From Escherichia phage vB_EcoS_Zar3M, in sequence record NC_073065.1: a stretch of DNA of 45,901 nt. One strand, given 5' to 3'. Under the pieces are notes generated by a model. It made no database searches. It saw only the letters and a program-made list of their open reading frames with translations, and was not told the DNA's origin. This document shows, piece by piece, positions 1 to 45,901 of the stretch. How positions within the stretch are numbered: position 1 is the stretch's first letter; every line of letters starts with the position of its first letter. The position numbers and the translations under genes were made by a program.

Positions 1-101
1 CAGCAGATAGCGATCAACTTTTTCATGCGCGTGATTAATATTGGTTGCATTCGGCCTGGCACCCTGCTATTTTGGTTGCACACCAACATGAGGACTGAAC
101 A

Positions 102-407
102 ATGAAAGCGGTTATCTGGAATTACGCAATGTCTGTGGCTAAGCTGTACGAAGCAAAACACACAAACGGCAACGCAGACGACGCGCGCCAGGCTGTCATC
201 CTGGCCCAGCAGGGAATCATGAACGCGTTAGACAATATGTTTGCCAGCCTGGACGAACTGGAGCCGCTGCGCGTGGCAATCCAGGACTACGCGCTTGCAT
301 TTGCCCGTGAGCGCCTGGCGTATCGCTTCGGGATCGGTGAGACGGCTGTGACGAACATCGCCCGGATTAAAGCCCAGCGCGAACTATTCGCCCAGCTTGC
401 TAAATAA
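102..407 (+). CDS. hypothetical protein (101 aa)
   Basis: Intact ORF with ATG start ~25 nt downstream of two ATTGGTTGCA motifs (41-49, 72-80); protein-like composition; no recognisable motif. Confidence 0.45.
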   Translation: MKAVIWNYAMSVAKLYEAKHTNGNADDARQAVILAQQGIMNALDNMFASLDELEPLRVAIQDYALAFARERLAYRFGIGETAVTNIARIKAQRELFAQLAK

Positions 408-416
408 GGGGTCAAA

Positions 417-686
417 ATGGGGCGTAGACGAGCAAAACAGCTTTCGTGGCGTATCCCACTGCATTGCATACGAATATGGGCTAAGAATGCGAATGCGGGG
501 GATTCTGTGTACTGGTGCTATCGCGACGACGTAAAGCCGTTGACGCAGACTCGCTACTTGCACCAGTTCGCAGCACAACACGATTTCAGGGTGCGGACTT
601 CCTTGCAACCAATGGGGATCCGTATTACATTACGCCGGAAGCCCGCCATTGAGCGGGTAGGCAAACACTGGAGACTGAGCAAATGA
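417..686 (+). CDS. hypothetical basic protein (89 aa)
   Basis: ORF with AAGGGG Shine-Dalgarno ahead of ATG; Arg/Lys-rich; function unknown. Confidence 0.4.
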   Translation: MGRRRAKQLSWRIPLHCIRIWAKNANAGDSVYWCYRDDVKPLTQTRYLHQFAAQHDFRVRTSLQPMGIRITLRRKPAIERVGKHWRLSK

Positions 687-835
687 CACCAATGCAAAGA
701 GCACTAATGGCGGGATTCTCGCAGAAGTTTATTTCAGTAGACGCCTGCATAGCTGATTATGAGATGGACAGCATCGCTACGGTATGCGATGGCGACTATA
801 AGACTGTTGACGAGATTGAGGAGACTGAGCAATGA
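683..835 (+). CDS. small hypothetical protein (50 aa)
   Basis: Unlisted short ORF; ATGA start/stop overlaps with both neighbours (683 and 832), same GGAGACTGAGCAA context before each start. Confidence 0.3.
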   Translation: MTPMQRALMAGFSQKFISVDACIADYEMDSIATVCDGDYKTVDEIEETEQ

Positions 836-1386
836 AATTACTATTCCGCCGCAAATCAGACGGCAAAATCCTTAGACCAATACAGACCCTTGTGGCACAC
901 GTCCGCTTGCACCACGCCGCGAGTGATCGGGTTTGGTGGGCAGTGAAGGGCAAAGTGCCGGAGAAATACGATATTGTCACGCATGATATCGAGCGCGGCG
1001 ATGTGCTGCGTGATATTCGCGACGGGCAGTTGTGGATCGTCGAGTATGTCGGGCTTCATGGCCTGCGTATGAAAACCGCAAGGATGCTCGCCGGTATGAC
1101 TTACTTCGGCCTTGTCAACTACGAGCGAGTAGGCCGCAAATACTGCATTCGTGACCGCCAGCCGCATGCGCGCGTGGAGTTCCGCAAGTCGCAGCCCGCC
1201 TATGCCACCTACGACGCGAGCAAAGTTATGGATCCGATCCGCCAGGCGACGCATGAGATTATTAATCGCTTCGATGCCGTGACGAACGCACAGCGCCAGG
1301 CGCGGGAATACGGCGTCGGGTTTATCCGTGTCGAACCAGACGGCAGCATGAAGGCCATCGACCCGCGCTCGGTGATTCTGAAATGA
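832..1386 (+). CDS. hypothetical protein (184 aa)
   Basis: ORF coupled to upstream gene by ATGA overlap; antisense ORF 856..1632 has non-protein-like composition. Confidence 0.5.
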   Translation: MKLLFRRKSDGKILRPIQTLVAHVRLHHAASDRVWWAVKGKVPEKYDIVTHDIERGDVLRDIRDGQLWIVEYVGLHGLRMKTARMLAGMTYFGLVNYERVGRKYCIRDRQPHARVEFRKSQPAYATYDASKVMDPIRQATHEIINRFDAVTNAQRQAREYGVGFIRVEPDGSMKAIDPRSVILK

Positions 1387-1507
1387 ATAAATGCATTNGT
1401 GATATGCTTCAGCATAACCGCTTTGAGATAGGCGGTCGGGTGTTTCGCAATTACTTCGTGGCGCGTGCATGGGCGCGCCATATTGGCAAACCAGAGGGGG
1501 CAATACG

Positions 1508-1795
1508 ATGCTACACGATTTGATATATTGGTTTGGATTGGCCAGTTGGCTATGCTTGGTCACGGCAGGGCTTGGCGCGATATGGGTATTCCTGATTTGG
1601 CCAGCGGTGGAAGCCGCCAGCATTACCCGCATGACGTTTCAGATATACAAGCGCCGTGGCATCACGGAGCACCCGACCAGGTTGCGCATGTGGTGGCTAT
1701 GGTATCGGGATATGATAGGGGGCAGGATGTTCGAGGCCGTCCGGTCGACGGGATGGGAGTGGAAAGGCGTCGGCAAGTGGTCCATTTTCGATTAA
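1508..1795 (+). CDS. small membrane protein (95 aa)
   Basis: Internal ATG at 1508 preceded by GAGGGGG; N-terminal hydrophobic stretch LIYWFGLASWLCLVTAGLGAIWVFLIW predicts a TM helix. Confidence 0.4.
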   Translation: MLHDLIYWFGLASWLCLVTAGLGAIWVFLIWPAVEAASITRMTFQIYKRRGITEHPTRLRMWWLWYRDMIGGRMFEAVRSTGWEWKGVGKWSIFD

Positions 1796-1812
1796 TTATG
1801 CAAGCGTGATAT

Positions 1813-1847
1813 AGTCCCAGTGAGCTAAAACTTACTGGGACTTTTTT
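1813..1847 (+). terminator. intrinsic terminator-like hairpin abutting holin start
   Basis: AGTCCCAGT-12 nt loop-ACTGGGACT (9-bp stem) followed by TTTTTT, then ATG at 1848. Confidence 0.5.
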
Positions 1848-2138
1848 ATGGATAAGATAAACGAGTGGCTATTTGCCATCNCATNTNTGGNTGGCGGCTT
1901 NGTNGGCGCNCNCATTCNTGGNGNGGCNACGAAAGGGCCNCNAAACTTNGTTTTATATATCGTGGTNGGCTTCCTGTGCGCCATATTTGGTGCGCCAGCT
2001 ATCGCCGAGTGGGCTGGCTTATCTGGCGAGCGCACTGTCGCCGGTTTGGGCTTCGTAACTGCAATCTTCTGGATGCCAATAGCCGCCCGGATCAGGGAGA
2101 CTATTGAGTCGTTCCGACTTCCGGGGGGCGCAAAATGA
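1848..2138 (+). CDS. putative holin
   Basis: Small protein with hydrophobic segments (VLYIV.GFLCAIFGAPAIAEW, GLGFVTAIFWMPIAA) and charged C-terminus, directly upstream of endolysin; contains n-masked bases. Confidence 0.5.
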   Translation: MDKINEWLFAIXXXXGGXXGXXIXXXXTKGXXNXVLYIVXGFLCAIFGAPAIAEWAGLSGERTVAGLGFVTAIFWMPIAARIRETIESFRLPGGAK

Positions 2139-2858: not shown

Positions 2859-2874
2859 TACGGGGTAACACAGT

Positions 2875-3288: not shown

Positions 3289-3384
3289 ATCTACCACCGC
3301 GGTTAATTCCGGGCTTTTTATTGCTTGACTTGCAACCAACATAGAGGCCATACTGCGACCAATCAACGAGAGGAGTAGTAAACT

Positions 3385-3465
3385 ATGGCACGTAATGATA
3401 TTTGGGTTTTGGCGATCTGGACCACCGCAGCATTCATTGGCATGGTTATTTGCGAATTGCTATAA
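3385..3465 (+). CDS. small hydrophobic peptide (26 aa) upstream of phosphoesterase
   Basis: Unlisted ORF MARNDIWVLAIWTTAAFIGMVICELL with strong GAGGAG RBS; followed by GGGACCG...CGGTCCC hairpin (3479-3506). Confidence 0.3.
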   Translation: MARNDIWVLAIWTTAAFIGMVICELL

Positions 3466-10803: not shown

Positions 10804-11211
10804 TTAAAGTGCTTCTAGAATCTCGTAAAACTTATTTGCCAGCGCTTGGCGGCGTTCGAATTTTTCAGTGATAACCAATTCCGGGCGGTTAAATAGCTTT
10901 GCGTGGGTGTTCCAATTGAGGATTTCCGTTTCCATTATTTTCTTCCGGTTGTAGTCGGTGTTTTTGATGCTAAATTCCTTGATAGCGTCATTAAGAAAAT
11001 CAGTCATACACTCAACGTCTGTTCTCTTAACTTCGAACGTACGGGCCTCGATTGGGCTATTTGTGCGAAGTACGACGACTCCGCCGTGGTAGGTGTCGAC
11101 TACCATATACTTATAAGTCACCCCATCCCACTCCGGATCGAAAGGGCGCCCAAATACGTCGTCGGCTTTCCACACTTTCTGGTACGGTGTTTCTTTGATT
11201 AATGTTGGCAT
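10804..11211 (-). CDS. hypothetical protein (135 aa), reverse-strand moron gene
   Basis: Intact ORF with ATG at 11211 preceded by AAGGAAAAACAAAATG; upstream promoter-like element containing ATTGGTTGCAC-TATATT. Confidence 0.5.
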   Translation of the reverse strand: MPTLIKETPYQKVWKADDVFGRPFDPEWDGVTYKYMVVDTYHGGVVVLRTNSPIEARTFEVKRTDVECMTDFLNDAIKEFSIKNTDYNRKKIMETEILNWNTHAKLFNRPELVITEKFERRQALANKFYEILEAL

Positions 11212-11212: not shown

Positions 11213-11300
11213 TTGTTTTTCCTTCATGTCTCTGTTGGTGTGCAACCAATATAGTGCAACCAATACGCGGATTGCAAGCGAATTTTGCGATTATTTTTAT
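11213..11300 (-). promoter_or_regulatory. promoter-like element with tandem ATTGGTTGCAC motifs and conserved 40-bp box
   Basis: On - strand reads CTTGCAA-N8-ATTGGTTGCAC-TATATT-ATTGGTTGCACACC; shares ATAGTGCAACCAAT and TGCAAG(C/T)GAATTTTGC with 30281-30320. Confidence 0.4.
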
Positions 11301-16846: not shown

Positions 16847-17160
16847 AAGNGGGACGTCTCCCTTTTTCCCGCCCTNCAAAACTNCATACCTNCTCAATTC
16901 CNCTGCATAAACNCAAAACGGGNCAGGNGGGNCNNCCCNCTTTNTCCCNCCCCNCAAATGCGCATACCTATGCAGTTTTAATGCATAAAGTAAGCGGGAC
17001 AGAAAGCGGGACAGAAAANNGGGGGGAAAAAGNGGGANAGCACCCCGTCCCCGCCAGTGCTGCCGCGGTTTTCAGCCGATCGGGACAGGCGGGACAACCC
17101 CCAGTNTTTCANACTAGACGGGGGTCAACGGCCCCCCTCGTNTGAGACTGAANAAGGTTT
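16847..17160. repeat. iteron-rich non-coding element, copy A (GCGGGACA octamers plus conserved stem-loop)
   Basis: At least 5 direct GCGGGACA-type boxes (16994, 17006, 17032 masked, 17080 variant, 17089), inverted CGTCCCCGC, stem-loop AGACGGGGG...CCCCCCTCGT flanked by CAGTCT/AGACTG; about 35 bp nearly identical to 45620-45655. Confidence 0.6.
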
Positions 17161-22632: not shown

Positions 22633-25600
22633 CGATTATCTACGACGTCACAGGGCATAAAGGCGGNGGCGGCAAACAGCACACCCCGCAGGAAACGCCG
22701 GANANCCNGCNTTCCCTGGCTAAAANCCGCATNTTGCTTGCGCNNGGGGNNGGGGAATTCGAAAGTATTACCNGCGCCNGCGAATTGNGGCNGNGTGTAT
22801 ACCTGGNCGGCACGCCGANCCAGAACGCCGACCTGTCTGAAAACTTCCCNGGCGCGCGCGTGGAGTTCCGCCCCGGTACACAGCACCAGGATGTGATCCA
22901 CGGATTTTCAGCGGTGGAAAGTGAGCAATCCGTCGGCGTAAAACTGGAAAACGGCACGCCGTGGGTGCGCCAGATTAACGACACCAGTCTTGACGCCGTG
23001 CGCATTCGTGTTGGTATCCCGGCCCTGTACACCAACGAAGATAATGGCGACCTGGTGGGCGGGCGCATCGACTATAAAATCGTTGTGTACACAGATAACG
23101 CCGACCCGCGCGAGTTCAACTTCGCTGCCGTTGGTAAAACAATGTCGCTGTATGAGCGCGACCACCGCATCGAATTACCGCCGAACGTGAACACCGGCTG
23201 GCGCGTGGAAGTGCACCGCACAACGGCAGATTCCACATCGGCGAAAGTGGTGAACGATATCCGGGTGCAATCAATCACTGAGATTATCGACGCCCGCCTG
23301 CGCTACCCGCAAACCGCGCTGTTGTTCGTGGAGTTCGACGCTAAAGCGTTCCAGAACATCCCGCGCGTATCCATTAAGTGCAAAGGCCGCAAAGTGCTGG
23401 TCCCGAACAACTACGATCCGATCAACCATACCTATTCGGGCGACTGGGATGGCACGTTTAAACGCGCGTGGACGGATAACCCTGCGTGGCACTGGTACGA
23501 TATTTGTATTACGGAGCGCTTCGGCCTCGGTCGCCGGATCAAACCGCAAATGCTGAACCGGTACGCGCTCTACCAGATTGCGAAGCGCTGCGATCAACTG
23601 GTCAGCGACGGCAACGGCGGGCAGGAAATACGATTTAAGAATGATATGTACATCCAGTCGCAGACAGACGCCTGGACCGTGCTTAAGGATTTAGCAGCTA
23701 TCTTTGCCGGTATGACCTGGTGGGGCAACCAGATGTTGAATATCGTAAGTGACCAGCCGGTCGCAGCGGTATCGCACACTATCACCAACGCCTCGGTTAT
23801 TGATGGCAGATTCGACTACGCGTCAGGGAGCCAGAAAACTCGCTATTCCACGTTCGCGGTAGCATACGGCAACCCTAAGAACCACTACGACGATGCCATC
23901 GCAACGGGACAGCGTGTCGAACTGGTACGCCGCCATAAGATTAACCGTCTGGATATTACGGCGATCGGCTGTACGCGTGAATCAGAAGCGCAACGCCGGG
24001 GGCACTGGGCGCTAATCTCCAACCAGCTTGACCAGCAAGTTAGCTTTAAGGTTGGCATGGAAGGACTATTCTTTATTCCTGGTAGTGTAGTCGCGATCGC
24101 CGATACAAACATTTCTGGCGGCTTCGAGACACGCGGCGGTCGCCTGTTGTCGGACCCCGGCACGCGTACCGTGCTTAACACGGACAGCGAAATCACGTTC
24201 CNCCCAGGTGATAAATTCCTGGTACGCACCGATAGCGGTAATGTGGAGACTCGCGAGATCGCCAGCGTCAACGGCAACAAGGTTACGCTAAAAACCGCAC
24301 TGGACGCCGACCCGATTCCAGACCAGCCGTTTTGCGTTGATGGCGACGATATCCAGTTGCAGAAGTTCCGCATAACCGACCTGGAATATGACGACTCTAC
24401 CAGCACTTTTTCGGTGCGCGGGATCGAGTACAACGACAGCAAGTATGATGCCGTTGATAATGGCGCGCGCCTTGATCCGGGTATCTTCACGCAAGTGCCA
24501 GACGGTGTAATGAAGGGGCCAGAGTCCGTGACCATCACTCCGTCGCAGATTTCATCGCAAGGCCAGCTAATCACCAACGTGGATATTGTTTTCCCGCCGG
24601 TGAAAGATGCCGTGGTGTATGAAATACAGTGGCGACGCACCAGCTTGCAGAATATGGCGGTCCAGTGGGGAAACGACTGGGTAAACATCCCCCGCACGGC
24701 ATCGAACGGCGCTCACATCCCTAACGTGTTCTCCGGTAACTACCAGGCACGCGTCCGCGCGATCGGTATGGGCGAGATTTCGTCCCCGTGGGTGTCGTCC
24801 GCTATCACGCCGGTGGAAGGTCGTCTCGGCGGTCTTAACGCNCCTATCNTCNCCAACGCGNTTTNGGGCCNCCNCCAAATTTTNTGGAAGNGGNGCCANA
24901 ANAACNCCNCGNNGGATATTTCGTACACCGAGCTTGAGGTCCGCAAGACGGGTGAAACGGAATGGAAGTTCCTAACCAACGTCCCATACCCCGGGTCGGA
25001 GTATGCGCAAACGTCGCTGGAGTTCGGCATCTATCAGCAGTTGCGCGCCCGTGTCGCGGATAAAATCGGCAACCTGTCGGACTGGTCGGCCCCGTTTGAG
25101 GGGCAGGTGAGTGACAAAGTTGACGAGTATATGAAGGGGCTTGATGACGCGTTCTTGACTTCCGAGGATGGTAAACACTTCCAGGAAGCAATAGACACGA
25201 TCCCGCAGGGTATTTACGAGGCGATGCTCACCGACGCGCAGCAATTGTTCAACGCCCGCGCNGAGTATAAAGGGATTTATGCGGAAATAACGGTGGCATA
25301 TAACGTGGCGGCGGACGCCCACAAGGCGGTCGCGCAACTTGAGACGTTGATCGGCACTCGTCTTGACGATGCAGAAGCGTCGATCCACACGTTGCAGACC
25401 GCGCAAAGCACGCATGAACAAGCGTTCGCCCAGTATCAACAAACGGTTGCCGCTAAGTTCGGGGAGCAGGAATCNGCNATNCAGCAGGTGCAAACGGCAA
25501 CGGCAGACGTAGCGGGCGCGCTGGCGGAGTACAAGACCCAGGTCGCGGCACAGTTCGGTCAGCAGTCCGCCGCTATCGAGCAGAAGATGACGTCCACGTT

Positions 25601-26690: not shown

Positions 26691-26969
26691 TTACCCCCAA
26701 TACGTATATATAAATCTTGATTCGCCAGCGTTAAAGCCGCTCCAGGAGACAGTGTTGTCGCTTACGGATATTGATGGCGCACCCCAAGATGTGCCGTTCC
26801 AGGTATGCGTACCAACGTAACCTGCCTTTAAACTTTTCCCCGGCGGACGGTTGTGATACGTCTTGCTCCCGGATGGTTGTGTGAATTTGTCAAGAAAAAA
26901 AACCGGCGTTAACAGGCCTGTGACGTCACGACCATGTTCGTCATAAATCGCGTACCCATAGTTACTCAT
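26691..26969 (-). CDS. hypothetical protein (92 aa)
   Basis: ATG at 26969 preceded by GGAG; 8-nt ATGAGTAA overlap with lipoprotein gene stop. Confidence 0.4.
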   Translation of the reverse strand: MSNYGYAIYDEHGRDVTGLLTPVFFLDKFTQPSGSKTYHNRPPGKSLKAGYVGTHTWNGTSWGAPSISVSDNTVSWSGFNAGESRFIYTYWG

Positions 26970-27231
26970 TTCTACACTCCACAATTTCAAATTTATCTTC
27001 GCTTTGCCATCTGTGAACGAAAGTTACAAATTTCTGTGATGGGGCTACTCGGTATTGTTTTTCGCCAAATCGGTTTTCACGCACCGCGTTTAGTTTAACA
27101 GGGTAGCTATCGTTTACGGGGAATGTTTTAACCGCATATTGGCCTACGCAATCGATAGCCTTGTAGTTGCCGTCTGGCGATGCGGAGCAACCGGACAAAA
27201 GAACCGCACAAATCATAATTAAAGTTTTCAT
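26962..27231 (-). CDS. small outer-membrane lipoprotein (Cor/Llp-like superinfection exclusion candidate)
   Basis: ATG at 27231 with AGGAG RBS; signal peptide plus lipobox MKTLIMICAVLLSGCSASP; divergent from tail fibre gene. Confidence 0.55.
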   Translation of the reverse strand: MKTLIMICAVLLSGCSASPDGNYKAIDCVGQYAVKTFPVNDSYPVKLNAVRENRFGEKQYRVAPSQKFVTFVHRWQSEDKFEIVECRNE

Positions 27232-27311
27232 GGTATCATCTCCTATATTTGGTTGAGTTTTAGTATTACACCGCTCGATCAAGAATGCAACCAATTTACG
27301 AGGATTTAGCT

Positions 27312-30231: not shown

Positions 30232-30294
30232 GGTGTTTTCCTTTTTCGGGGAGGCCGTATTGCCTCCCTGCGCGTTAACTATAGTGCAACCAAT

Positions 30295-30765
30295 TTATTG
30301 GCTGCAAGTGAATTTTGCAACGTTTATTGCGTAAATATTCGGGACCAGATCNNTGNNCGCCCGACGAATTGCCGCGATGTTCTTCTCGCAATCTTCAATG
30401 ATGACCAGTTCCGACACGTCCGCATAGCAGACCATTTTGAACACGGCGCACGCCTTAAACTCAGGCGGTGGGGTGTCGTCCAGCATGTGGCGCATAAACA
30501 ACCGACCGACAGGGAAGACCTCCAGTTGCTCGGCGGTAGTCTCCCAGCATTCTCGCTGCCGGTTTGTCAGATACGCGATCTCGAAGCCTTGCTCTTTATA
30601 CATGCTCAACAGCGGCAGCATATCCATGTTAAGGTCTTCGCGTACGTGCGCTTTGTGCCACTTCGCCCAAAATGTTGATTTGGTTTTTATACCTGGAACC
30701 AGGTCGGCGCGTGCATCACTCGAACCATTAATAACGCCATCAAGATCACAAATCAGTAGTTTTAT
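30295..30765 (-). CDS. HAD-superfamily hydrolase (phosphatase/nucleotidase-like), non-ATG start
   Basis: HAD motif I KLLICDLDGVI lies 46 codons upstream of the first ATG (30627); motif II IAYLTNRQ, motif IV-like IIEDCEKN; only in-frame start is ATA at 30763-30765 overlapping the upstream TAA. Confidence 0.5.
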   Translation of the reverse strand: MKLLICDLDGVINGSSDARADLVPGIKTKSTFWAKWHKAHVREDLNMDMLPLLSMYKEQGFEIAYLTNRQRECWETTAEQLEVFPVGRLFMRHMLDDTPPPEFKACAVFKMVCYADVSELVIIEDCEKNIAAIRRAXXDLVPNIYAINVAKFTCSQ

Positions 30766-31903: not shown

Positions 31904-31990
31904 CGTGTCGTCTCCAGGTATTAAAAAAGGGCGTCCAAACCGGACACCCTCAATATAACGCAACCAATATGATTATGCAACCAATTTACG
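31904..31990 (-). promoter_or_regulatory. promoter-like region with two ATTGGTTGC motifs
   Basis: On - strand: CGTAAATTGGTTGCATAATCATATTGGTTGCGTTATATT then RBS; shares 17/18 nt (ATGCAACCAATTTACGA) with 27285-27302. Confidence 0.4.
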
Positions 31991-32303
31991 AATAAAAGTT
32001 CGGGTCGCGTGCGACGTCTACCAGGTAAAGGTTACTTATGCGGTTGCCGTAGTGCCCTGGAGTGCGCTGGCGGCACACAACGGCGAAGCCGGGAGGGATT
32101 GTATTGCCCGTCTCAATAATCCACGCGACGCGTGCGCCAGACAGCGTCTTTCCGTTGCATTCGATACGTGTTCCGCCATCGGCAGTATTGATGTTGCCAA
32201 TCTTGCAGCCGGTGGACTTCAGACGGATGACGCCGGTTTTGCTGTCGTAGGTGAATAGCTGGTTAGTCATTGCGACCGAAAAGTCGATGGCTTCGAATGT
32301 CAT
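31986..32303 (-). CDS. HNH endonuclease-like protein (intact copy)
   Basis: Pattern LFTYDSKTG...GKTLSGARVAWIIETG..IPPG...NRISNLYLV resembles HNH_3-type phage endonucleases, though the canonical DH dyad is not obvious; ATGA overlap with methyltransferase. Confidence 0.45.
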   Translation of the reverse strand: MTFEAIDFSVAMTNQLFTYDSKTGVIRLKSTGCKIGNINTADGGTRIECNGKTLSGARVAWIIETGNTIPPGFAVVCRQRTPGHYGNRISNLYLVDVARDPNFYS

Positions 32304-32995
32304 TTTAAATTTTCCTCGTTAACCGCTATCGCGAAGCCGCGCGGAGTGAGCGACCGGATTAATTTTGTGCGGGCTGATTTGCCTCCGAGGCGACTATACT
32401 GCTTCGAGTACCCTTTTTCAACGAAAACAGGTCTCTTCTCTGGCATACGGAAGCCGTTGCCGGTCCATAAGCAGGTCAGCTTCGGATATGAATCGCGAGC
32501 GTTGATGTATTCCGGGAAGAGCGGGTGTACGTCATCCTCCGGCAGATATCCCCCATACTCCCACGGGTCGAATGAGTGATCCGGCTTGCGCCACTGGGTG
32601 GAAAGCACACTGCGCGGATTCTCAATCATATATGGCACTTCAAAGAAGTCACCTAAGTAAGCGGCAATCTTCGCGGNGCGCACCGCCTTAAGCTGAAAGG
32701 CAGGGTCTTTAGCACGCTTGCGAGGGAAAGCGGGTGCACCGCTCACTGCCAGATCCGTACACGGCGGGAATGCATAAATGATATCCGGCGTGCCGAAATC
32801 ACCATTCATCGCGCGGTCCACGAAGTCCAGATCGATAAACTCATTACGATATCGGATACCGCGCCCATAAATCCGGTAGTCCAGGTACGAGCCGTGATCG
32901 GCTTCGGAGTAGTTGAAGCAATAACACTTATGCCCCATCTCGGCAGCACGCTCAATCATCAAGCCGCTGCCGTCGAATAATGACCAGATAATCAT
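32300..32995 (-). CDS. DNA (cytosine-5)-methyltransferase-like protein, copy 1
   Basis: Motif I-like SLFDGSG, PC motif AFPPCTDLAVSG, ENV-like MIENP; 231 aa (short for a C5-MTase). Confidence 0.6.
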   Translation of the reverse strand: MIIWSLFDGSGLMIERAAEMGHKCYCFNYSEADHGSYLDYRIYGRGIRYRNEFIDLDFVDRAMNGDFGTPDIIYAFPPCTDLAVSGAPAFPRKRAKDPAFQLKAVRXAKIAAYLGDFFEVPYMIENPRSVLSTQWRKPDHSFDPWEYGGYLPEDDVHPLFPEYINARDSYPKLTCLWTGNGFRMPEKRPVFVEKGYSKQYSRLGGKSARTKLIRSLTPRGFAIAVNEENLK

Positions 32996-33264: not shown

Positions 33265-33367
33265 TCTTGCAGCCGGTGGACTTCAGACGGATGACGCCGG
33301 TTTTGCTGTCGTAGGTGAATAGCTGGTTAGTCATTGCGACCGAAAAGTCGATGGCTTCGAATGTCAT
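33164..33367 (-). pseudogene. truncated HNH endonuclease-like gene (duplication-derived)
   Basis: First 66 aa identical to 31986..32303, truncated at the duplication junction and lacking the NRISNL region. Confidence 0.5.
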
Positions 33368-34059
33368 TTTAAATTTTCCTCGTTAACCGCTATCGCGAAG
33401 CCGCGCGGAGTGAGCGACCGGATTAATTTTGTGCGGGCTGATTTGCCTCCGAGGCGACTATACTGCTTCGAGTACCCTTTTTCAACGAAAACAGGTCTCT
33501 TCTCTGGCATACGGAAGCCGTTGCCGGTCCATAAGCAGGTCAGCTTCGGATATGAATCGCGAGCGTTGATGTATTCCGGGAAGAGCGGGTGTACGTCATC
33601 CTCCGGCAGATATCCCCCATACTCCCACGGGTCGAATGAGTGATCCGGCTTGCGCCACTGGGTGGAAAGCACACTGCGCGGATTCTCAATCATATATGGC
33701 ACTTCAAAGAAGTCACCTAAGTAAGCGGCAATCTTCGCGGNGCGCACCGCCTTAAGCTGAAAGGCAGGGTCTTTAGCACGCTTGCGAGGGAAAGCGGGTG
33801 CACCGCTCACTGCCAGATCCGTACACGGCGGGAATGCATAAATGATATCCGGCGTGCCGAAATCACCATTCATCGCGCGGTCCACGAAGTCCAGATCGAT
33901 AAACTCATTACGATATCGGATACCGCGCCCATAAATCCGGTAGTCCAGGTACGAGCCGTGATCGGCTTCGGAGTAGTTGAAGCAATAACACTTATGCCCC
34001 ATCTCGGCAGCACGCTCAATCATCAAGCCGCTGCCGTCGAATAATGACCAGATAATCAT
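33364..34059 (-). CDS. DNA (cytosine-5)-methyltransferase-like protein, copy 2
   Basis: Identical to 32300..32995; ATGA overlap with full-length helicase stop. Confidence 0.6.
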   Translation of the reverse strand: MIIWSLFDGSGLMIERAAEMGHKCYCFNYSEADHGSYLDYRIYGRGIRYRNEFIDLDFVDRAMNGDFGTPDIIYAFPPCTDLAVSGAPAFPRKRAKDPAFQLKAVRXAKIAAYLGDFFEVPYMIENPRSVLSTQWRKPDHSFDPWEYGGYLPEDDVHPLFPEYINARDSYPKLTCLWTGNGFRMPEKRPVFVEKGYSKQYSRLGGKSARTKLIRSLTPRGFAIAVNEENLK

Positions 34060-35745: not shown

Positions 35746-35746
35746 A

Positions 35747-35920
35747 TTATTTTTGTTCTGCACGGTAGCGGCGCTGCCGTTCGCGCTCTTTCTTATTGCG
35801 GCACGATTTGCACTCTGCCCGATACCCGTCTGGACTGCGCGCAGTCTTACCGGTGTATTTGTGGAACTGGGATAGCGGCTTTACACAGCCGCAATTACTA
35901 CAACGTTTTTCTTCAATCAT
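35747..35920 (-). CDS. small zinc-ribbon protein (57 aa)
   Basis: ATG at 35920 with AGGA RBS; Cys4 pattern CSNCGC...CKSC and basic C-terminus; the longer listed ORF has a hydrophobic non-coding-like N-extension. Confidence 0.4.
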   Translation of the reverse strand: MIEEKRCSNCGCVKPLSQFHKYTGKTARSPDGYRAECKSCRNKKERERQRRYRAEQK

Positions 35921-35960
35921 CTCTAAAATCCTCGATATGGCTAACCGGCACACTATACCG

Positions 35961-36239
35961 TTATGCGACCAATTCAGCAACCAATAAATCGCAGTCGGAT
36001 ATGTTGTCGATAACGCGAACGTCAGCACCGCGGCGGGCCATTCGCTCATGTTCACGTACCTGGTGCGGCTTCGGTTTTCCTCCGGGGCGCTTCACTTCGA
36101 CGAACACTATTTTGCCGTTGATGATAATAATCAGGTCGGGCGCACCCGCGCGCCCCTCCCATGCCAGTTTGCGGCAGAATCCGCCTACCTCTTTCACCCG
36201 TCGCTTCAGGTGACTTTGAATCTTGCCCTCTGGTGTCAT
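35961..36239 (-). CDS. VRR-NUC domain nuclease
   Basis: Motif GAPDLIIIINGKIVFVEVKRPGG (PD...E-V-K); start at 36239 or at 36311 overlapping polymerase 3' end. Confidence 0.6.
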   Translation of the reverse strand: MTPEGKIQSHLKRRVKEVGGFCRKLAWEGRAGAPDLIIIINGKIVFVEVKRPGGKPKPHQVREHERMARRGADVRVIDNISDCDLLVAELVA

Positions 36240-38787: not shown

Positions 38788-39573
38788 TTAACGGCGGCGA
38801 CGTTTACGTGGTGCTTCGTCTTCGTCGTCTTCGTCCTCATCTTCGTCATCGCGGGNCTTGCGGCGTTTGCGAGGTTTTTCATCTTCCTCATCGTNGTCGT
38901 CATCGCGGGGCTTGGATTTCTTGGACTTGCGCGGCTTGTCATCCTCATCATCGTCATCACGACGTTTTGACTTCTTAGCCTTGCGCGGTGCTTCGTCTTC
39001 GTCGTCGTTGTCCAGGTCTTCGTCGGAACATGAAGACCCGCCACCTCCGAAGGCTTCGCCGTCTTCACGGAATCGCAGACCCAGCAAGCCCGCCCCGAGT
39101 CCCTTGCCGTTGGTATTGTTCCACGCCCAAATATCAAGTGACACGTTGCAATAACAACCGGAGTAGATCTCCTGGCCTTCGATCTCGTCGCCTTCTACGG
39201 TCAGACCTTGTTCAGTCTGCTTCTCGCCGAGTGACGTTTGAATGATAGGCTGTTTGAACGATTTGGCGTTGATATACAACATGCCTTCGAATTCTTCGGT
39301 AACTTCATCGCGCTCGTCGCCGTCGCGAACTGCACATTCCTTAGAATCCTGGGCGTAGTGGCGGTCCATCCACTTATCGGCATTCTTCTCAGATTTCAGC
39401 TTGTCGGTGAGCACTGCACGCGCTGCCGCTTCCACTTTGTCCACCTGCGGATCTTCTTTATCAAGAAGAATCACGGCACGGTATGCCGGTTTTTGTCCAT
39501 CCTGTTTAGGGGTATCACGTTCCCAAATTTTCAGGAAGCATACGCGCACATTTTTCAGGTTGNCTTTANCCAT
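38788..39573 (-). CDS. DUF2815-type phage SSB-like protein with charged repeat C-terminal tail
   Basis: N-terminal region resembles DUF2815 proteins found beside DUF2800 and PolA in phage replication modules; C-terminal ~90 aa alternate acidic runs with KPRKSKKSK-type basic blocks. Confidence 0.55.
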   Translation of the reverse strand: MXKXNLKNVRVCFLKIWERDTPKQDGQKPAYRAVILLDKEDPQVDKVEAAARAVLTDKLKSEKNADKWMDRHYAQDSKECAVRDGDERDEVTEEFEGMLYINAKSFKQPIIQTSLGEKQTEQGLTVEGDEIEGQEIYSGCYCNVSLDIWAWNNTNGKGLGAGLLGLRFREDGEAFGGGGSSCSDEDLDNDDEDEAPRKAKKSKRRDDDDEDDKPRKSKKSKPRDDDXDEEDEKPRKRRKXRDDEDEDEDDEDEAPRKRRRR

Positions 39574-39663
39574 TTTCCAATTCCTCNTTTTCACATNTNT
39601 NGGGGTTNTTNTGNGCCNCCCCNNCCGGCTTGGTTNNCAATTTACTTGGTTGCGCCTGAGCGG

Positions 39664-41517: not shown

Positions 41518-41769
41518 TTATTTTGTCTCCCAGCGGTCAATTGTTTTTGCTTCGGATGCAACTGCGAAGCGAACATATTCCAGATTGGAATCCGCCCAAA
41601 TATAAAAGTCGGGGTTAGTAAAGGTGGTGCGCTTAATTTGCGCGGGGGTGTTACGGCGTTTATCTATTACGGCAACGCGTGACTGAAAGCTGCCGATGCG
41701 TTCGAATAGCCAATAGTACGGGCGCTGGTCGCGGGAGTCCACCGCCTCGATTAGCGTGAAGCGTGCCAT
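41518..41769 (-). CDS. hypothetical protein (83 aa)
   Basis: ORF with AGAGGACGAGACAATG start context immediately after a terminator. Confidence 0.4.
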   Translation of the reverse strand: MARFTLIEAVDSRDQRPYYWLFERIGSFQSRVAVIDKRRNTPAQIKRTTFTNPDFYIWADSNLEYVRFAVASEAKTIDRWETK

Positions 41770-41943: not shown

Positions 41944-41947
41944 GATA

Positions 41948-42463
41948 TTAATCTTCCAGTTCGAAATAGGTTTCGACGATTTCTTTTAGCTCTTTGTGGA
42001 AGTCTTCGACGTCGTCATCTTCCAGCTTGGCGATTGATTTGATCTCGAACGATTCCAGCAGGTCGTCGAATTCGTCGTTCGCATCGTCGTCATCACCACC
42101 GGCGATAATCGCGGCATACTGTTTGATTTCGTCGCGCATCTCCGCCAGCGGATCGGCATCTTTCTTACCTTTGCCTTTCGCCGGTGCTTTCTTAGACTTA
42201 GCCGGTTTTTCGTCTTCGGCATCGTCGTCGTCATCTTCTACGACTTCTTTTTTAGCCTTACCTTTCGCCGGTGCTTTTTTAGCTTTAGCCGGTTTTTCGT
42301 CTTCGGCGTCATCGTCGTCATCTTCGACAACTTCTTTTTTGGCCTTAGACGGCTTCTTGTCTTCCTGTTTACCAACGGCAGCGCCAACGGTTTCATAATG
42401 CTTTGCAATGGTTTCCAGTGCTACTACGCCGCGAGTGATCAGGTTTACGATTTGCTCAAACAT
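41948..42463 (-). CDS. highly charged tandem-repeat protein (171 aa)
   Basis: ATG at 42463 with GGAGATATACATG; contains a 2x tandem repeat KKEVVEDDDDDAEDEKPAK(A/S)KKAPAKGK (DNA direct repeat about 60 bp at 42200-42330) plus acidic C-terminal region. Confidence 0.5.
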   Translation of the reverse strand: MFEQIVNLITRGVVALETIAKHYETVGAAVGKQEDKKPSKAKKEVVEDDDDDAEDEKPAKAKKAPAKGKAKKEVVEDDDDDAEDEKPAKSKKAPAKGKGKKDADPLAEMRDEIKQYAAIIAGGDDDDANDEFDDLLESFEIKSIAKLEDDDVEDFHKELKEIVETYFELED

Positions 42464-42699
42464 GGTATATCTCCGATTGGTTAAGTTTAGGTGTCGGCAG
42501 TTAACTTCGTCGGTGGCCTTAACATATTGCCAGGTTACGCGTTCTCCCGTTCGGGTAGTGGACCTGGTTATATAATCACGGTTGGGAATCCTGACACTTC
42601 GATCCGGCCCCTGCGTTGCCCCTCTCCAGTTTGCGTCCTGCATCCTGTCGACGGAGTGAATGATAGATTGGTTGGAGGAGGGGTGTCAACAACTAATTT

Positions 42700-42734: not shown

Positions 42735-42754
42735 CTAACCAATAAGAGACAATG

Positions 42755-42795
42755 AGACGGGAATTATTATTACACGCGTGCGCGACCGTTTCAAT
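42755..42795 (-). promoter_or_regulatory. sigma70-like promoter (- strand) firing into the terminator at 42700-42734
   Basis: On - strand TTGAAA-N17-AATAAT; predicted start about 50-60 nt upstream of the T10 tract. Confidence 0.35.
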
Positions 42796-42805
42796 ATCCA
42801 AAGGA

Positions 42806-42834
42806 TTTGACACCGTGCAGTTTTGGGTGTAGTT
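42806..42834 (+). promoter_or_regulatory. sigma70-like promoter for regulator/primase operon
   Basis: Perfect -35 TTGACA (42806-42811), 17-nt spacer, weak -10 TAGTTT; about 30 nt upstream of ATG at 42867. Confidence 0.4.
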
Positions 42835-42866
42835 TCGTTGGTCATTAACCAACTGAGGGCTGAATT

Positions 42867-43196
42867 ATGAATATCAAAGAAGCAATTGAAGTGTTATCTA
42901 ATGCAATCCGCGGCGAAGCGGGTAAATCCTGGTATTACACAAATGCGGTGGATACTCTGTTATTTGAAGTCGTCCGATTACGCAGTGCTGAGAAGGAGTT
43001 ACGCGCGAAGCTGGAACTACTCAATGGTACGGCAGCCAGCAAGCTGCAAAAGCANAATGAAGAAATGGAAGAATACAAAAAGCAGGTTATCCGTTTGCGC
43101 GACGAAGGGAAATCATGGGCGATGATTGCAGAGCTAACCGGAATTAATCAGAGCACCGTGCGATCCTGGGTACGCAATAATAAAACCTCTAAGTAA
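42867..43196 (+). CDS. helix-turn-helix DNA-binding regulator (109 aa)
   Basis: C-terminal HTH-like GKSWAMIAELTGINQSTVRSWVRNN; N-terminal coiled-coil-like region; first gene of + operon. Confidence 0.5.
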   Translation: MNIKEAIEVLSNAIRGEAGKSWYYTNAVDTLLFEVVRLRSAEKELRAKLELLNGTAASKLQKXNEEMEEYKKQVIRLRDEGKSWAMIAELTGINQSTVRSWVRNNKTSK

Positions 43197-43206
43197 GGNA
43201 ACGGCA

Positions 43207-45471
43207 ATGNGCTTAATTAAATTCGCAGTAANACGACCCGCTAAAAAAGGNGAAAAAGCCAGGGCGGAAAANTTCCAGATGACTACCGATGAGTTTTTCG
43301 AATTTATCAACGATGCGAAAGAAATCTCCTCGGTGCATATCAACAAGACGGAAGATAAAGCGGAGTATGCGCGCCGCAAGCGTAAGGCCGATGGCATTGT
43401 GGCTTATACCAGTGATGGGCTGCGCCGCAAGACCAGTGCCGTGGATCGCTCGATCCTGTTCTTCGATATGAACCGTACCGACACCCGCACCTTGCGCCGC
43501 TGCCGTAAGGCGTTCATCGACGCGGGTCTTGAACACGTATTTCACACCACCACCGGCGACCGCCACCCGCTGAAGGGCGGCACGCGTTGCGCCCGTTTCC
43601 TGGTGCTAACGGATAAGCCCGTACCGGCGGAAGACCTGGGCCGCGTACAGTATGCACTATTACACCAACTCGGCCTGTCAGATGTGGACTTCGATGATTG
43701 CACGAAAGACACAAACCGCCTTATGTACCTGCCTCACCNGCAATCGGTTGTTAAGTGTCACTACGGCAAACGTGCCCGCGTCCGTCGTCTGATTCGCCTG
43801 GCGGATAAGCNGGGNGNGGAAAAAGAGGAAGTACGCCGCGAATTAACCCAGGGCGATGACGGCGTGGNGGACGGCATTNTGGNTTGGTGNTTCCAGGNAG
43901 GATTCGAACCGCTGTCGTCCGGTCGTGGTTATGAAGTGCCGTGCCCGAACGAACACCTGCACAGTGGTGAAGGGTCCACCGCTATCATGGTCAAGGATGG
44001 CGAGATCCGTTTCAAGTGTATGCACACTGGCAACGAGTGTTGCTCGGAACTGAACAGACACCAGCACCTGGCGCTACGTCTTATCGGGATACCGGACCAC
44101 CTGAACGTCGAACCACACAACATGTCTCGTAAGCAAATCGCCGCCATTCTCCCCGGACTGGACGACGAGGAAGTGGAATCGTGCTATGCGCATATAGTTG
44201 ATGCGGTCGGTGACGGCGACGAGTACGGCGTATGTACCGACGCGGACCTGGATAACGAACCGGTCGCACTGTTCAGTAAGCACGACCCGATCATCGAGGG
44301 GTTGATTAACTTCAAATCGACCTGGTATATGGCTGGCGAATCGAACATCGGTAAATCGTTCTACGTGCTGGGCCAAATGGGTGCGGTTGCCNCGGGGATT
44401 CCGTTCGGNGGTGCGAAGGTCGTCCAGTCTCATTGCTTCTATTTCGACGCGGAAGGTGGTGAAGCCTCCAACCAGCGTAAGGAAGCATTGCAGATCAAAT
44501 ATGAGCACGACCTGGACAAGCTGCACATTATCGATCTGCAATCACGCGGCTGGGATATCACCAGCAAATCCGGCTTGCGTGAAGTTATCAGCTTCATCAA
44601 CCGCACCGCTAACGGCGAACCGGTTGGCCTGGTGGCCTTCGACTCCCTCAACCAGACTGTTGCGTTGCGGTCCGCCGATGCTAAACCGTTCGACGAGAAC
44701 AACGCCAGCGATATGGGTGAAGTGGTCAAAGCGCTGAAGGCCATTGCGGAAAAGACCGGCGGCAGTGCTGGCGTCATCCACCACCCGGCGAAGGGCGCAA
44801 ACGGCAGCAGATCCCCCCGCGGGTCCGGCGCGCTGCATGGTGCTGTTGATTCTGCGTTCTTCCTTGAGCAACCGGACGACAACCAGCCGGGCCAGTTGAA
44901 CCTGTATCACGAAAAGGCACGTAACGGCATCAAGCAAGCGCCGCGCGGCTTCGTCCTGCTCAAGTGCAAGGTTAAGGNGGATCTCCGCAAGNCCGAAGCG
45001 TTCGAAGCCCNCCAGTCCNCCNGCACCGGGCCGGACTTTGGCGACGTCGTTGCCGGTTGGGACGTCAAGCCAATTGCCTCCACGCCACGCGACGAGACTC
45101 TTTACCTCGTNCCGGTCGCCCTGGCNCCGTTCNCTNTTGAGNNGGNGAAGGCCGNGGGNAAANNAGCCGTTAANNAANAAAANNCCNCNGGACCNCGCAA
45201 NNAGAAANANAAAGTGCTTTATGCGGCACTGGAAAAACTGATGGAAGATAACCCGGACCATACCGGATTCAGTAAATCGGCAATTGTCCGCCAGGCTGGG
45301 CTTGCGAAAGGGGGCACATCGACGAAGGCAATAGACGATATGGTGGAGCGCGGCGTGCTAGGTTTTTATACAGATCCGCACACTGGGGCCATCTATGGGT
45401 CGTCGAATATCGTCATCAAAACAAATATACCCATCACGCTTTCGGCGACCGATGATGATTTAAAAGATTAA
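43207..45471 (+). CDS. primase-helicase (primase-like N-terminal domain, zinc-binding region, P-loop RecA/DnaB-like ATPase)
   Basis: Cys/His cluster CPNEHLH...CMHTGNEC; Walker A GESNIGKS and Walker B-like LVAFDS; N-terminal domain has phage/plasmid primase-like features; several n-masked patches. Confidence 0.7.
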   Translation: MXLIKFAVXRPAKKXEKARAEXFQMTTDEFFEFINDAKEISSVHINKTEDKAEYARRKRKADGIVAYTSDGLRRKTSAVDRSILFFDMNRTDTRTLRRCRKAFIDAGLEHVFHTTTGDRHPLKGGTRCARFLVLTDKPVPAEDLGRVQYALLHQLGLSDVDFDDCTKDTNRLMYLPHXQSVVKCHYGKRARVRRLIRLADKXXXEKEEVRRELTQGDDGVXDGIXXWXFQXGFEPLSSGRGYEVPCPNEHLHSGEGSTAIMVKDGEIRFKCMHTGNECCSELNRHQHLALRLIGIPDHLNVEPHNMSRKQIAAILPGLDDEEVESCYAHIVDAVGDGDEYGVCTDADLDNEPVALFSKHDPIIEGLINFKSTWYMAGESNIGKSFYVLGQMGAVAXGIPFXGAKVVQSHCFYFDAEGGEASNQRKEALQIKYEHDLDKLHIIDLQSRGWDITSKSGLREVISFINRTANGEPVGLVAFDSLNQTVALRSADAKPFDENNASDMGEVVKALKAIAEKTGGSAGVIHHPAKGANGSRSPRGSGALHGAVDSAFFLEQPDDNQPGQLNLYHEKARNGIKQAPRGFVLLKCKVKXDLRKXEAFEAXQSXXTGPDFGDVVAGWDVKPIASTPRDETLYLXPVALXPFXXEXXKAXXKXAVXXXXXXGXRXXKXKVLYAALEKLMEDNPDHTGFSKSAIVRQAGLAKGGTSTKAIDDMVERGVLGFYTDPHTGAIYGSSNIVIKTNIPITLSATDDDLKD

Positions 45472-45546
45472 TTTGTGCGCGCATTGGTTGCCGATTTGGG
45501 AATTCCGATATGATTAAAAGATTAATTTGTGCGCGCATTGGTTGCC
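45457..45546. repeat. two ~35-bp direct repeats each containing ATTGGTTGCC
   Basis: TGATT(T)AAAAGATTAATTTGTGCGCGCATTGGTTGCC at 45457-45490 (overlapping primase stop) and 45510-45546; third ATTGGTTGCC at 45572-45581. Confidence 0.6.
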
Positions 45547-45619
45547 ATTTTTAGTGTTTTTATCTGGTCGTATTGGTTGCCGTGTAGTGTGTATATAATG
45601 AATAGTTATGCAATAAAAC

Positions 45620-45790
45620 TGCATAAAGTGAGCGGGACAGAAAGCGGGACAAACAAGGGGCGGGACAAAGCGGGACAGCGCCCCCGTCCCGCCCCGGATG
45701 GCGCGGCCTAGAGAGGAGCGGGACAGCGGGACAAAACCCCAGTCTTTCAGACTAGACGGGGGTCGATGGCCCCCCTCGTCTGAGACTGAA
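45620..45790. repeat. iteron-rich non-coding element, copy B (GCGGGACA octamers plus conserved stem-loop)
   Basis: Six direct GCGGGACA boxes (45632, 45644, 45660, 45670, 45718, 45726) and inverted CGTCCCGC (45685-45692); stem-loop CAGTCTTTCAGACTAGACGGGGGTCGATGGCCCCCCTCGTCTGAGACTG; homologous to 16980-17156. Confidence 0.65.
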
Positions 45791-45901
45791 TAAAATCCGG
45801 GGATTGCAAATTACACGGNAGCATNACGCGAAGTGCGGTCGCGGATGAACTAGGCAACCAATGCAAACCGCATTACGCTGAGTGAAAAATGCGGTTTGCA
45901 G

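Follow-up and report, generated by a model that had tools for sequence, protein, structure and literature searches.

The genome of Escherichia phage vB_EcoS_Zar3M (sequence record NC_073065.1), analysed here over its full length of 45,901 nucleotides and referred to as the window, carries a short dispersed motif, ATTGGTTGC or, in its longer form, ATTGGTTGCA, which lies in nearly all of the sigma70-type promoters and next to the iterons of an origin-like region. The reading preferred here, held tentatively and a little short of even confidence, is that this motif may be an operator, that repression would be its most likely effect and that the protein bound to it would most likely be the small helix-turn-helix (HTH) protein encoded directly upstream of the primase-helicase gene. 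No description of the motif, of the Dhillonvirus promoters, transcription control and origin, or of the start of replication in these phages was found in the literature searched, and a search on Jersey-like origins gave nothing relevant; the only earlier traces found are annotations in two sequence records, three consensus-promoter features for HK578 and repeat-region features for SO-1. The motif is undescribed so far, but of a familiar kind, that of an operator or an iteron site.

The window is a complete, collinear Dhillonvirus genome (HK578-like virulent siphophages of E. coli) that contains 577 N; its terminase-portal region is 99.5% identical to that of phage CEC_Kaz_2018, and 155 phage records match it. 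The annotation of vB_EcoS_PTXU06, with coinciding gene coordinates and 93.7% of the bases identical at the same offset, was used as gene map and gives an intergenic share of 7.5%. An unbiased scan of all k-mers of the window against a third-order Markov expectation has revealed ATTGGTTGC as the most over-represented 9-mer (13 copies against 0.42 expected, p = 1e-15) and ATTGGTTGCA as the top 10-mer. Nine exact copies of TTGGTTGCA were counted against 0.47 expected, a number reached in none of 100 shuffles, and with up to one mismatch there are 20 copies of ATTGGTTGCA against 3.15 expected (shuffle maximum 8). Eleven of the 13 exact ATTGGTTGC copies are intergenic (binomial p = 3e-11), and one of the remaining two, at 35977, falls in the closing codons of one gene with the next gene directly downstream. 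No Rfam match and no tRNA was detected in the window, and no known RNA family overlaps the motif copies.

An over-represented and mostly intergenic motif had been proposed in a preliminary description of this DNA, and both points were borne out, the first by the formal enrichment test and the second by the concentration of exact copies in the small intergenic fraction; the motif is not equally frequent in coding sequence, either in the window or in the relatives. The copies listed at that time are real and their coordinates are right to 1-6 nt (45477 should read 45483 and 45533 should read 45537), with five copies having been missed: 604-613, inside a gene, 3354-3363, 30297-30306, 35964-35973 and 42667-42676. 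Four TATA(T/G)T boxes and a palindrome at 30286-30305, which is the inverted pair GCAACCAAT-TT-ATTGGCTGC, were found as described. The proposed orientation with the downstream gene holds for 13 of the 20 copies, and the seven exceptions are informative because most of them are reversed copies within, or adjoining, promoters of the opposite direction.

Ten sigma70-type core promoters were located upstream of gene starts by -35-like and -10-like hexamers 16-18 bp apart, and the motif sits within them (Table 1). Fifteen of the 20 window copies occupy promoter cores at fixed registers, the register being defined, for forward copies, as the start of the motif relative to the start of the -10 hexamer. 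Most promoters hold two copies and some hold one, and both orientations occur. A strict consensus scan was passed by P_L and P39645 only, the other promoters having TTG-only -35 hexamers, and in the three promoters with a canonical TTGAC-type -35 (P_L, P39645 and P3332) the motif is reversed in the spacer. Since TTGCAA is identical to its reverse complement, reversed copies too can provide a -35-like hexamer, and examples are found at 30297 and 605. A promoter class with a specific upstream element, as first suggested, does not agree with this layout, since the motif lies inside the promoters, in at least four registers and reversed in the three canonical ones. The operator of a phage regulator that had been suggested together with it is supported in part, by the overlap with promoter cores, the two orientations, the usual two copies per promoter and a constraint above that of the hexamers.

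The relatives compared were PTXU06, CEC_Kaz, KarlBarth, SO-1, HK578, 14 IMG/VR genomes and further loci (designated by L-numbers), with conservation statistics that span about 25 related genomes; the alignments covered 11 of 12 motif-bearing regions with 5-17 distinct orthologous sequences each, and the coding copy at 605 was excluded from the statistics. Variable columns amounted to 8.2% in the motif and 44% in the flanking non-coding DNA (Fisher p = 1e-22), about a fivefold difference. The -10 and -35 hexamers, with 23% and 21% variable columns against 45% in other non-coding columns (p = 0.002 and 0.004, respectively), are also conserved above background, which supports these promoters being real, and the motif is under tighter constraint than either hexamer. 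ATTGGTTGC is the top 9-mer in PTXU06, CEC_Kaz_2018, SO-1 and HK578 as well, KarlBarth and the 14 IMG/VR genomes agree with the window in top k-mer and in motif positions, copies were found at equivalent positions in every Dhillonvirus genome fetched, and the P40 region is conserved in 17 unique orthologous sequences. At the P_L site the window reads ATTGGTTGG and 17 of 18 aligned relatives read ATTGGTTGC. The motif is also retained in divergent phages with unalignable flanks. The syntenic but divergent phages L022, L024 and L026, which encode a homologue of the HTH protein, keep both the motif and the promoter architecture, L022 with paired -35 and spacer copies at two orthologous promoters (the P31977 and P35977 layouts) and with two tandem reversed copies that fill the P_L spacer.

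The HTH protein is the product of the first gene of the P_R operon and is the only one with a DNA-binding domain among the 20 window proteins scanned with Pfam, which are mostly products of small genes next to motif-bearing promoters. It matches HTH_23 with 29.7 bits (cut-off 24.6) and Sigma70_r4_2 with 27.1 bits (cut-off 25.7), and among NCBIfam models it is nearest to region 4 of extracytoplasmic function (ECF) sigma factors, below the cut-off. The C-terminal 60 residues, which include the HTH, are almost invariant among homologues, and the N-terminal 45 are unalignable. In the AlphaFold model (pLDDT 87.5) a long helix (residues 21-61) is followed by a C-terminal three-helix HTH (65-108); with 109 residues arranged as helix plus HTH, the protein lacks sigma region 2 and is not a complete sigma factor.

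A palindrome, GTTGGT-CATTA-ACCAAC (42837-42853), follows the -10 of P_R and begins about 29 nt before the start codon of the HTH protein, a position (-29) kept in most Dhillonvirus loci. In the sister-clade loci L022, L024 and L026 an exact reversed motif copy stands right after the P_R -10, and a start-site copy is present in the HTH-positive Dhillonvirus and sister-clade genomes read at P_R, except HK578 and L276; the promoter of the XRE-type regulator of L279 has no motif copy. N5 is the only spacing at which the palindrome TTGGT-N5-ACCAA occurs; the window has three, where 0.05 are expected, each placed immediately after a -10. Among all loci fetched, those that encode the HTH protein (763 kb) contain 69 exact palindromes and those without it (394 kb) contain none, so that the palindromic form and the P_R copy track HTH_23, and the single motif is found also in clades without HTH_23. 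The HTH protein is the best local candidate for the binder because a copy or palindrome is located at the start site of its own promoter. It had been put forward in the preliminary description too, and the palindrome at its promoter agrees with that proposal; the age of the motif, which exceeds that of the HTH protein, does not.

This age is deduced from more distant phages. In a search that used the primase-helicase as anchor, the motif was found together with the HTH protein in clades whose helicases are 68% identical or more. In Serratia phage Otaku (Guernseyvirinae), whose primase-helicase is 45% identical, the top 9-mers are TTGGTTGCA and GTTGGTTGC, no homologue of the HTH protein was found and the same slot holds an unrelated XRE/Cro-type HTH (hhalign probability 0.1%). 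In Otaku a stretch of 120 bp within the 3' end of the primase-helicase gene holds four copies; these fall in three reading frames, and the insertion that contains two of them is missing from relatives, an arrangement that speaks for selection on DNA rather than on protein. A clade of seven IMG/VR contigs with 49-50% identical helicases carries GTTGGTTGC without the HTH protein (in one member, L279, the upstream gene encodes the XRE-type regulator mentioned above), and in several 37-45% clades, among them that of Salmonella phage W5, copies of TGTTGGCTG are grouped about the stop codon of the helicase gene. The core common to all clades is TTGGYTG; the first base of the motif, which precedes this core, is G in other clades, and position 6 switches from T to C between clades. 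The presence of the motif in clades without HTH_23 means that the HTH protein cannot be the ancestral or the sole binder. The regular embedding in promoter cores is much weaker in Otaku and W5, and the multiplication into promoters therefore appears to be a feature of the Dhillonvirus lineage.

In the operator reading, the bound protein would compete at the -35 with sigma region 4, occupy the spacer or obstruct the start site; since the word covers one or other of these elements, binding would exclude or stall host RNA polymerase. Repression at almost all phage promoters would then provide negative feedback or a temporal shut-off of early/middle transcription, including autoregulation of the replication operon. 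The HTH protein could bind the N5 palindromes as a dimer, and the paired single sites through single HTH domains or cooperatively. The copies in region B, the repeat region that follows the primase-helicase gene, would tie this protein, or an ancestral factor, to the origin, and the motif was probably at first an origin component, recognised by a factor common with the Guernseyvirinae, that was later multiplied into the Dhillonvirus promoter cores. Three features expected of operators were found, namely overlap with core promoter elements, conservation and independence of orientation, and the site at the HTH protein's own promoter is the one expected for autoregulation.

Several points weigh against this reading. 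A Foldseek search with the HTH model returned generic small HTH domains only (DeoR, resolvase/Hin, LuxR, sigma region 4), all with E > 0.8. In the sister clade the P_R palindrome is conserved in its right half only, and the co-occurrence of palindrome and HTH protein is a lineage-level correlation among related genomes and not a set of independent events. The motif-bearing clades that have no HTH_23 homologue (Otaku, the 49-50% clade and the more distant TGTTGGCTG clades) also count here. The analysis shows enrichment, location, registers, conservation and lineage-level co-occurrence; that a protein binds the motif, which protein this is and whether it represses are inferred, the last from position only, and copies at the -35 could equally serve activation. 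No data on Dhillonvirus transcription start sites, binding or expression timing were found in the literature searched.

Table 1. Positions of the promoters, motif copies, genes and repeats discussed in the text; registers are given first.
Feature	Position	Strand	Elements and motif copies
Register -28	copies 40, 27287, 31977, 35977 (45572 at -29)		TTGC forms the first four bases of the -35 (TTGCAT/TTGCTG); 17-bp spacer
Register -16	copy 35965		within spacer
Register -11	copies 11256, 30286, 31960		ATTGGTTGC-NN-TATANT; abuts -10
Register +3	copies 71, 11242		overlaps -10 and start site
P40	40..80	+	copies 40-49 ATTGGTTGCA and 71-80 TTTGGTTGCA; -35 TTGCAT 45-50 (from copy 1), 17-bp spacer, -10 TATTTT 68-73; copy 2 covers -10/start site and forms palindrome TTGGT-N5-ACCAA (72-87)
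Coding copy	604..613	-	exact; inside gene 417..686 (+)
P3332	3325..3363	+	TTGACT 3325-3330, 18-bp spacer, CATACT 3349-3354; two reversed copies, 3331-3340 abutting -35 and 3354-3363 just past -10
P11256	11234..11277	-	TTGCAA 11272-11277, 18-bp spacer, TATATT 11248-11253; for 10804..11211; at register -11, copy 11255-11264 abuts -10; at register +3, copy 11241-11250 covers -10/start site, forming palindrome 11234-11249
P27287	27262..27295	-	copy 27286-27295 gives -35 TTGCAT; 17-bp spacer, -10 AATACT 27262-27267
P30286	30278..30307	-	reversed copy 30297-30306 (+ strand) gives -35 TTGCAG; 18-bp spacer, -10 TATAGT 30278-30283; forward copy 30285-30294 abuts -10; both copies form the inverted pair 30286-30305
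P31977	31952..31985	-	copy 31976-31985 gives -35 TTGCAT; 17-bp spacer, -10 TATATT 31952-31957; spacer copy 31959-31968 abuts -10
P35977	35952..35985	-	copy 35976-35985 gives -35 TTGCTG; 17-bp spacer, -10 TATAGT 35952-35957; copy 35964-35973 within spacer
P39645	39639..39667	-	TTGACC-17-TAAATT; for single-stranded DNA-binding protein gene 38788..39573; variant copy CTTGGTTGCG (39645-39654, + strand) reversed in spacer, abuts -10
P_L	42660..42689	-	leftward early promoter; TTGACA-18-TATCAT, 11/12 to consensus; copy 42667-42676 reversed in spacer, abuts -10
P_R	42807..42853	+	TTGACA-17-TAGTTT 42807-42835; for HTH protein and primase-helicase genes
HTH protein gene	42867..43196	+	109 amino acids; first gene of P_R operon, directly upstream of primase-helicase gene
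Primase-helicase gene	43207..45471	+	AAA_25 core, divergent C-terminal domain
Direct repeat units (three)	45460..45586	+	each ends in ATTGGTTGCC: 45483-45492, 45537-45546, 45572-45581
Conserved core	45600..45612	+	GAATAGTTATGCA; followed by iteron array
Iteron array	45628-45735	+	at least 7 AGCGGGACA iterons
Inverted ATTGGTTGCC copy	45853-45862	-	far side of region B
Hairpin	45862-45900	-	perfect 13-bp stem, TGCAAACCGCATT...AATGCGGTTTGCA; no T-run; adjoins the inverted motif copy

The promoters with motif copies serve genes of every kind. The operon read rightward from P40 starts at 102 and contains small genes and the lysis cassette, and P3332 drives a small open reading frame (ORF) at 3385 and the phosphoesterase-terminase-structural operon. 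Leftward morons are served by P11256 and P27287, the latter driving 26962..27231 and the genes downstream. DNA-metabolism operons are driven by P30286, P31977, P35977, P39645 and P_L, with 35747..35920, for a Lar-like zinc-ribbon protein, and the helicase operon depending on P35977. The exact copy inside a gene at 604-613 is invariant in 15 unique orthologues and stands at the same place in SO-1, HK578 and IMG/VR loci; on the + strand it reads TTGCAA-17-TACATT, a possible internal promoter for 683..835.

Other features were observed around these promoters. A strong terminator hairpin (31927-31951, - strand) starts right after the -10 of P31977, an arrangement that would act as a compact terminator/promoter overlap in which read-through transcription would terminate and the promoter's own transcripts would be without the hairpin's 5' arm. 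In the P_L operon the first gene (41948-42463, -) encodes an extremely acidic protein of 171 amino acids (isoelectric point 4.5) with repeated KKEVVEDDDDDAEDEKPAK units, which may be a DNA mimic or a host-takeover protein. A leader, ACACCAACA or AACCAAC, stands immediately before the ribosome-binding site in several operon-first genes (72-90; 11231-11249 on the - strand; 42845-42853) and was also found near 24520 in W5 (L004), a phage without the Dhillonvirus form of the motif; this leader may be an ancestral element of the 5' untranslated region, perhaps a translational enhancer. A 5' untranslated hairpin UUGGU-N5-ACCAA was considered and rejected, as start sites deduced from the -10 positions are inside or after the left arm, which the RNA would therefore lack, and there is no Rfam match. 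A sigma54 reading (TGGCAC-N5-TTGCA) was discarded because the GG-to-GC spacing is wrong at every site.

The most serious alternative, although an unlikely one in our estimation, is that the motif is the site of a replication factor conserved across Dhillonvirus and Guernseyvirinae, for example some part of the primase-helicase or a further conserved early protein, with its primary role at the origin in region B; promoter copies would couple the occupancy of an initiator to transcription, in the manner of DnaA boxes, or mark loading sites activated by transcription. The 530 bp that separate the primase-helicase gene from gene 102 hold four ATTGGTTGCC copies; three direct repeat units there begin 12 nt past the primase-helicase stop codon, and the stretch is annotated as repeat 'region B' in the SO-1 GenBank record. 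In every clade (window, Otaku, 49% clade, L297 and W5) copies are clustered at the 3' end of the primase-helicase gene or just beyond it, the single feature of position that all have in common, and the cluster is always next to iterons and to the core GAATAGTTATGCA. This 13-nt core, which may be an unwinding element or an origin promoter, is conserved between the B regions of the window, L022, L297 and W5, down to about 43% helicase identity, and the region 45600..45735 is a probable replication origin. The presence of the motif where the HTH_23 gene is absent agrees with such a site, as does the layout of plasmid pRN1, which is the same (PMC4234260, in the part available). The primase-helicase is the rival candidate for the binder, with a C-terminal domain that, judged by its amino acid sequence, looks like a winged helix. 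In family-profile scans, however, no DNA-binding family was detected in the helicase outside AAA_25, and an origin role alone leaves the 15 promoter-core copies at fixed registers unexplained.

The divergence of the helicase also speaks against such a site. Several direct repeats lie in or next to the initiator gene and their location is conserved across relatives, as expected of origin iterons, but the motif does not co-vary with the helicase C-terminal domain, which is only 21-27% identical between motif-sharing clades, and this domain was rejected as the binder on that ground. In every clade the motif, as a conserved 'family 1' repeat, stands beside a second, clade-specific iteron family (GCGGGACA, ACTCGCAA, GGGGGAGA, AGGGATAA, CGGACAA and others), and it is this second family, that of AGCGGGACA and its counterparts, that tracks the variable domain much better than the motif does. 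The second family is expected to co-evolve with the divergent domain, and the primase-helicase is likely to bind these clade-specific iterons.

The second repeat was also recorded in its own right. In the window AGCGGGACA(A/G) is over-represented, with at least seven direct copies and an inverted pair, GGGGCGGGAC/GTCCCGCCCC, on the downstream side of the primase-helicase gene, and it occurs twice in tandem at 16989-17012, between the tail-chaperone and tape-measure genes (SO-1 'region A'). It is replaced clade by clade (ACTCGCAA, GGGGGAGA, AGGGATAA, CGGACAA, TCCGACAA), like true initiator iterons. A role of the motif as a strand-polarity element relative to region B (KOPS/Chi-like) was rejected, as the orientation is opposite at equivalent Otaku sites.

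A decidedly unlikely explanation is that the motif is an activator site which replaces or assists sigma70 region 4 at a poor -35, in the manner of T4 MotA and sigma appropriation or of class II activation, and redirects host RNA polymerase. The motif lies exactly at the -35 in at least five promoters, whose hexamers (TTGCAT, TTGCAA, TTGCTG and TTGCAG) match TTGACA at 3/6 positions and are accompanied by good -10 boxes, and the candidate HTH protein is most similar to region 4 of sigma70/ECF factors. Nevertheless, the position varies (-28, -16, -11 and +3) and both orientations occur, and the copies in spacers, over start sites and in consensus-TTGACA promoters are at positions typical of repression. 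The lack of sigma region 2 in the HTH protein counts against activation as well, and no homologue of MotA or AsiA was found in the part of the ORFs scanned with Pfam, PHROG and NCBIfam.

The possibility that the motif is an ancient cis-element of the replication module of Dhillonvirus and Guernseyvirinae, a word that the HTH protein, newly acquired in the Dhillonvirus lineage, later took over so that the operator was kept through a non-orthologous replacement of its regulator, is considered markedly improbable. Candidates for the conserved factor, so far not recognised as binding DNA, would be the Lar-like zinc-ribbon protein, which is conserved and very basic, and some domain of the primase-helicase. 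As the word doubles as a -35 hexamer, an acquired HTH protein would compete with host sigma70 at nearly every phage promoter and, if this were true, a virulent siphophage would possess a replication-coupled, genome-wide transcription switch. The Lar-like protein (35747-35920, -) has 57 amino acids, a CxxC...CxxC zinc ribbon and a very basic tail (isoelectric point 9.8); it is 50-55% identical in Otaku and W5, being among the best-conserved small early proteins, and is a possible nucleic-acid binder. A conserved early protein of 83 amino acids (41518-41769) was rejected as a common binder, with no detectable family and missing from some motif-bearing loci.

It is very unlikely that the motif is the site of a host protein of Enterobacterales that recognises TTGGYTG, such as the GntR-type regulators PdhR and ExuR/UxuR or the factor of the CspA Y-box. 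PdhR and ExuR boxes have ATTGGT as their half-site, the CspA Y-box itself reads ATTGG, and the core is conserved across Escherichia, Sodalis, Serratia and Salmonella phages with different small regulators. When compared by spacing, however, no ATTGGT-N3-ACCAAT (up to two mismatches) and no N2 arrangement was found at any motif site, where N5 is the only one, and PdhR/ExuR boxes were rejected for this reason. Moreover, most copies are single, asymmetric and extend to TGCA, which is foreign to the host boxes; ATTGG is not conserved, because the first base is G in other clades, and the change from T to C at position 6 between clades is what would be expected for a co-evolving phage factor. An origin of the motif without function of its own, as a by-product of promoter duplication or a hitch-hiking -35-like sequence, would account for promoters that are clearly paralogous over about 40 nt (P11256 and P30286, with common GCAAAATTC(G/A)CTTGCA...ATTGGTTGCACTATA; P40 and P11242, with common TTGGTTGCACACCAACA), but is extremely improbable given a conservation far above that of the surrounding promoter DNA, hexamers included, its persistence between unalignable flanks, and its occurrence in both orientations, in several coding frames in Otaku and in non-promoter arrays.

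Two scans of IMG/VR for the motif were discarded: that for the single pattern ATTGGTTGC-NN-TATANT was dominated by chance single matches, and that for motif pairs returned long 27-nt arrays in unrelated contigs, regarded as coincidence. These arrays, in L153, L161, L191, L222 and other unrelated viral contigs of 27-80 kb, consist of about 14-15 tandem copies of a 27-nt unit containing ATTGGTTGCC. Two of them were examined and ORFs were read in one, L222, where the array is inside an ORF of 314 amino acids and encodes a SAATNTG(Y/D/N)(Q/W/R) repeat; because the array encodes a peptide repeat, the motif match there was taken as coincidence. A different 8-mer, ACGGCAGC/GCTGCCGT, is dispersed in 24 copies over the window (2.8 expected; e.g. 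1340, 6423, 15012, 23124, 35613, 44801) and ranks with the most enriched 8-mers of most related loci that were examined, Guernseyvirinae among them. All three reading frames contain it, both in sense and in antisense, 18 of the 24 copies being on the + strand, and it is thus not a simple codon or peptide effect. The segments 32300-32995 and 33364-34059 are a perfect (100% identical) tandem duplication of a C5-cytosine methyltransferase gene region, which has two genes in PTXU06 too.

Dhillonviruses are common E. coli phages that are represented in the BASEL collection, among therapy candidates and in studies of defence systems. For these phages the motif yields a map of about ten promoters that can be tested, and it points to a global regulator with its operators and to an origin with two repeat families, both as candidates. 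The map could be used in phage engineering, for the choice of promoters and of safe insertion sites, and in the reading of time-resolved expression and defence-trigger experiments. As a word older than the regulator encoded next to it, the motif is also a small and tractable case of a regulatory network that survives the replacement of its regulator.

In function, the motif is closest to the P1 C1 operators, to the way in which plasmid Rep proteins combine iterons with an inverted-repeat operator, to DnaA boxes and to NarL-type heptamers. The iteron plasmids with the initiators RepE (F), pi (R6K) and RepA (pSC101), on which there is a review (PMC4980987), resemble the window in having direct repeats in or beside the origin and next to the initiator gene; in the window, by contrast, there is no Rep_3-type protein, the second, clade-specific family AGCGGGACA is the better candidate for initiator iterons, and the motif is present at about ten other promoters as well. 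In plasmid pRN1 a small repressor gene (orf56) is placed directly upstream of that of the primase-helicase (orf904), and both the upstream promoter and the downstream origin are needed (PMC4234260); the layout is like that found here, but the plasmid is archaeal, its proteins are unrelated and the available part of that source describes no dispersed promoter copies. The T4 MotA box is likewise a phage element that replaces a good -35 upstream of a good -10, where sigma region 4 binds, but it has one position (-30) and one orientation, and the motif, with its at least four registers and two orientations, does not belong to that class.

The heptamers of NarL/LuxR/GerE regulators are bound by an HTH related to sigma region 4 and are arranged as single, direct or inverted half-sites at variable positions, as the motif is, and such regulators activate or repress according to position. 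Unlike them, the HTH protein of the window has no receiver or ligand domain, and the similarity is weak (E > 0.8 in the fold search). DnaA boxes couple a replication factor to transcription and, like the motif, are asymmetric 9-mers present at the origin and in promoters in both orientations, with a different sequence (TTATCCACA); for the motif, an initiator as binder is a candidate reading. Phage P1 is temperate and its C1 operator is a 17-bp sequence (ATTGCTCTAATAAATTT), whereas the window belongs to a virulent phage, has a word of 9-10 bp, shows no sequence or protein relationship with P1 and has only a candidate binder; in their organisation, however, the C1 operators are like the sites described here, being short, asymmetric, distributed over many operons, single or paired, in either orientation and overlapping promoters.

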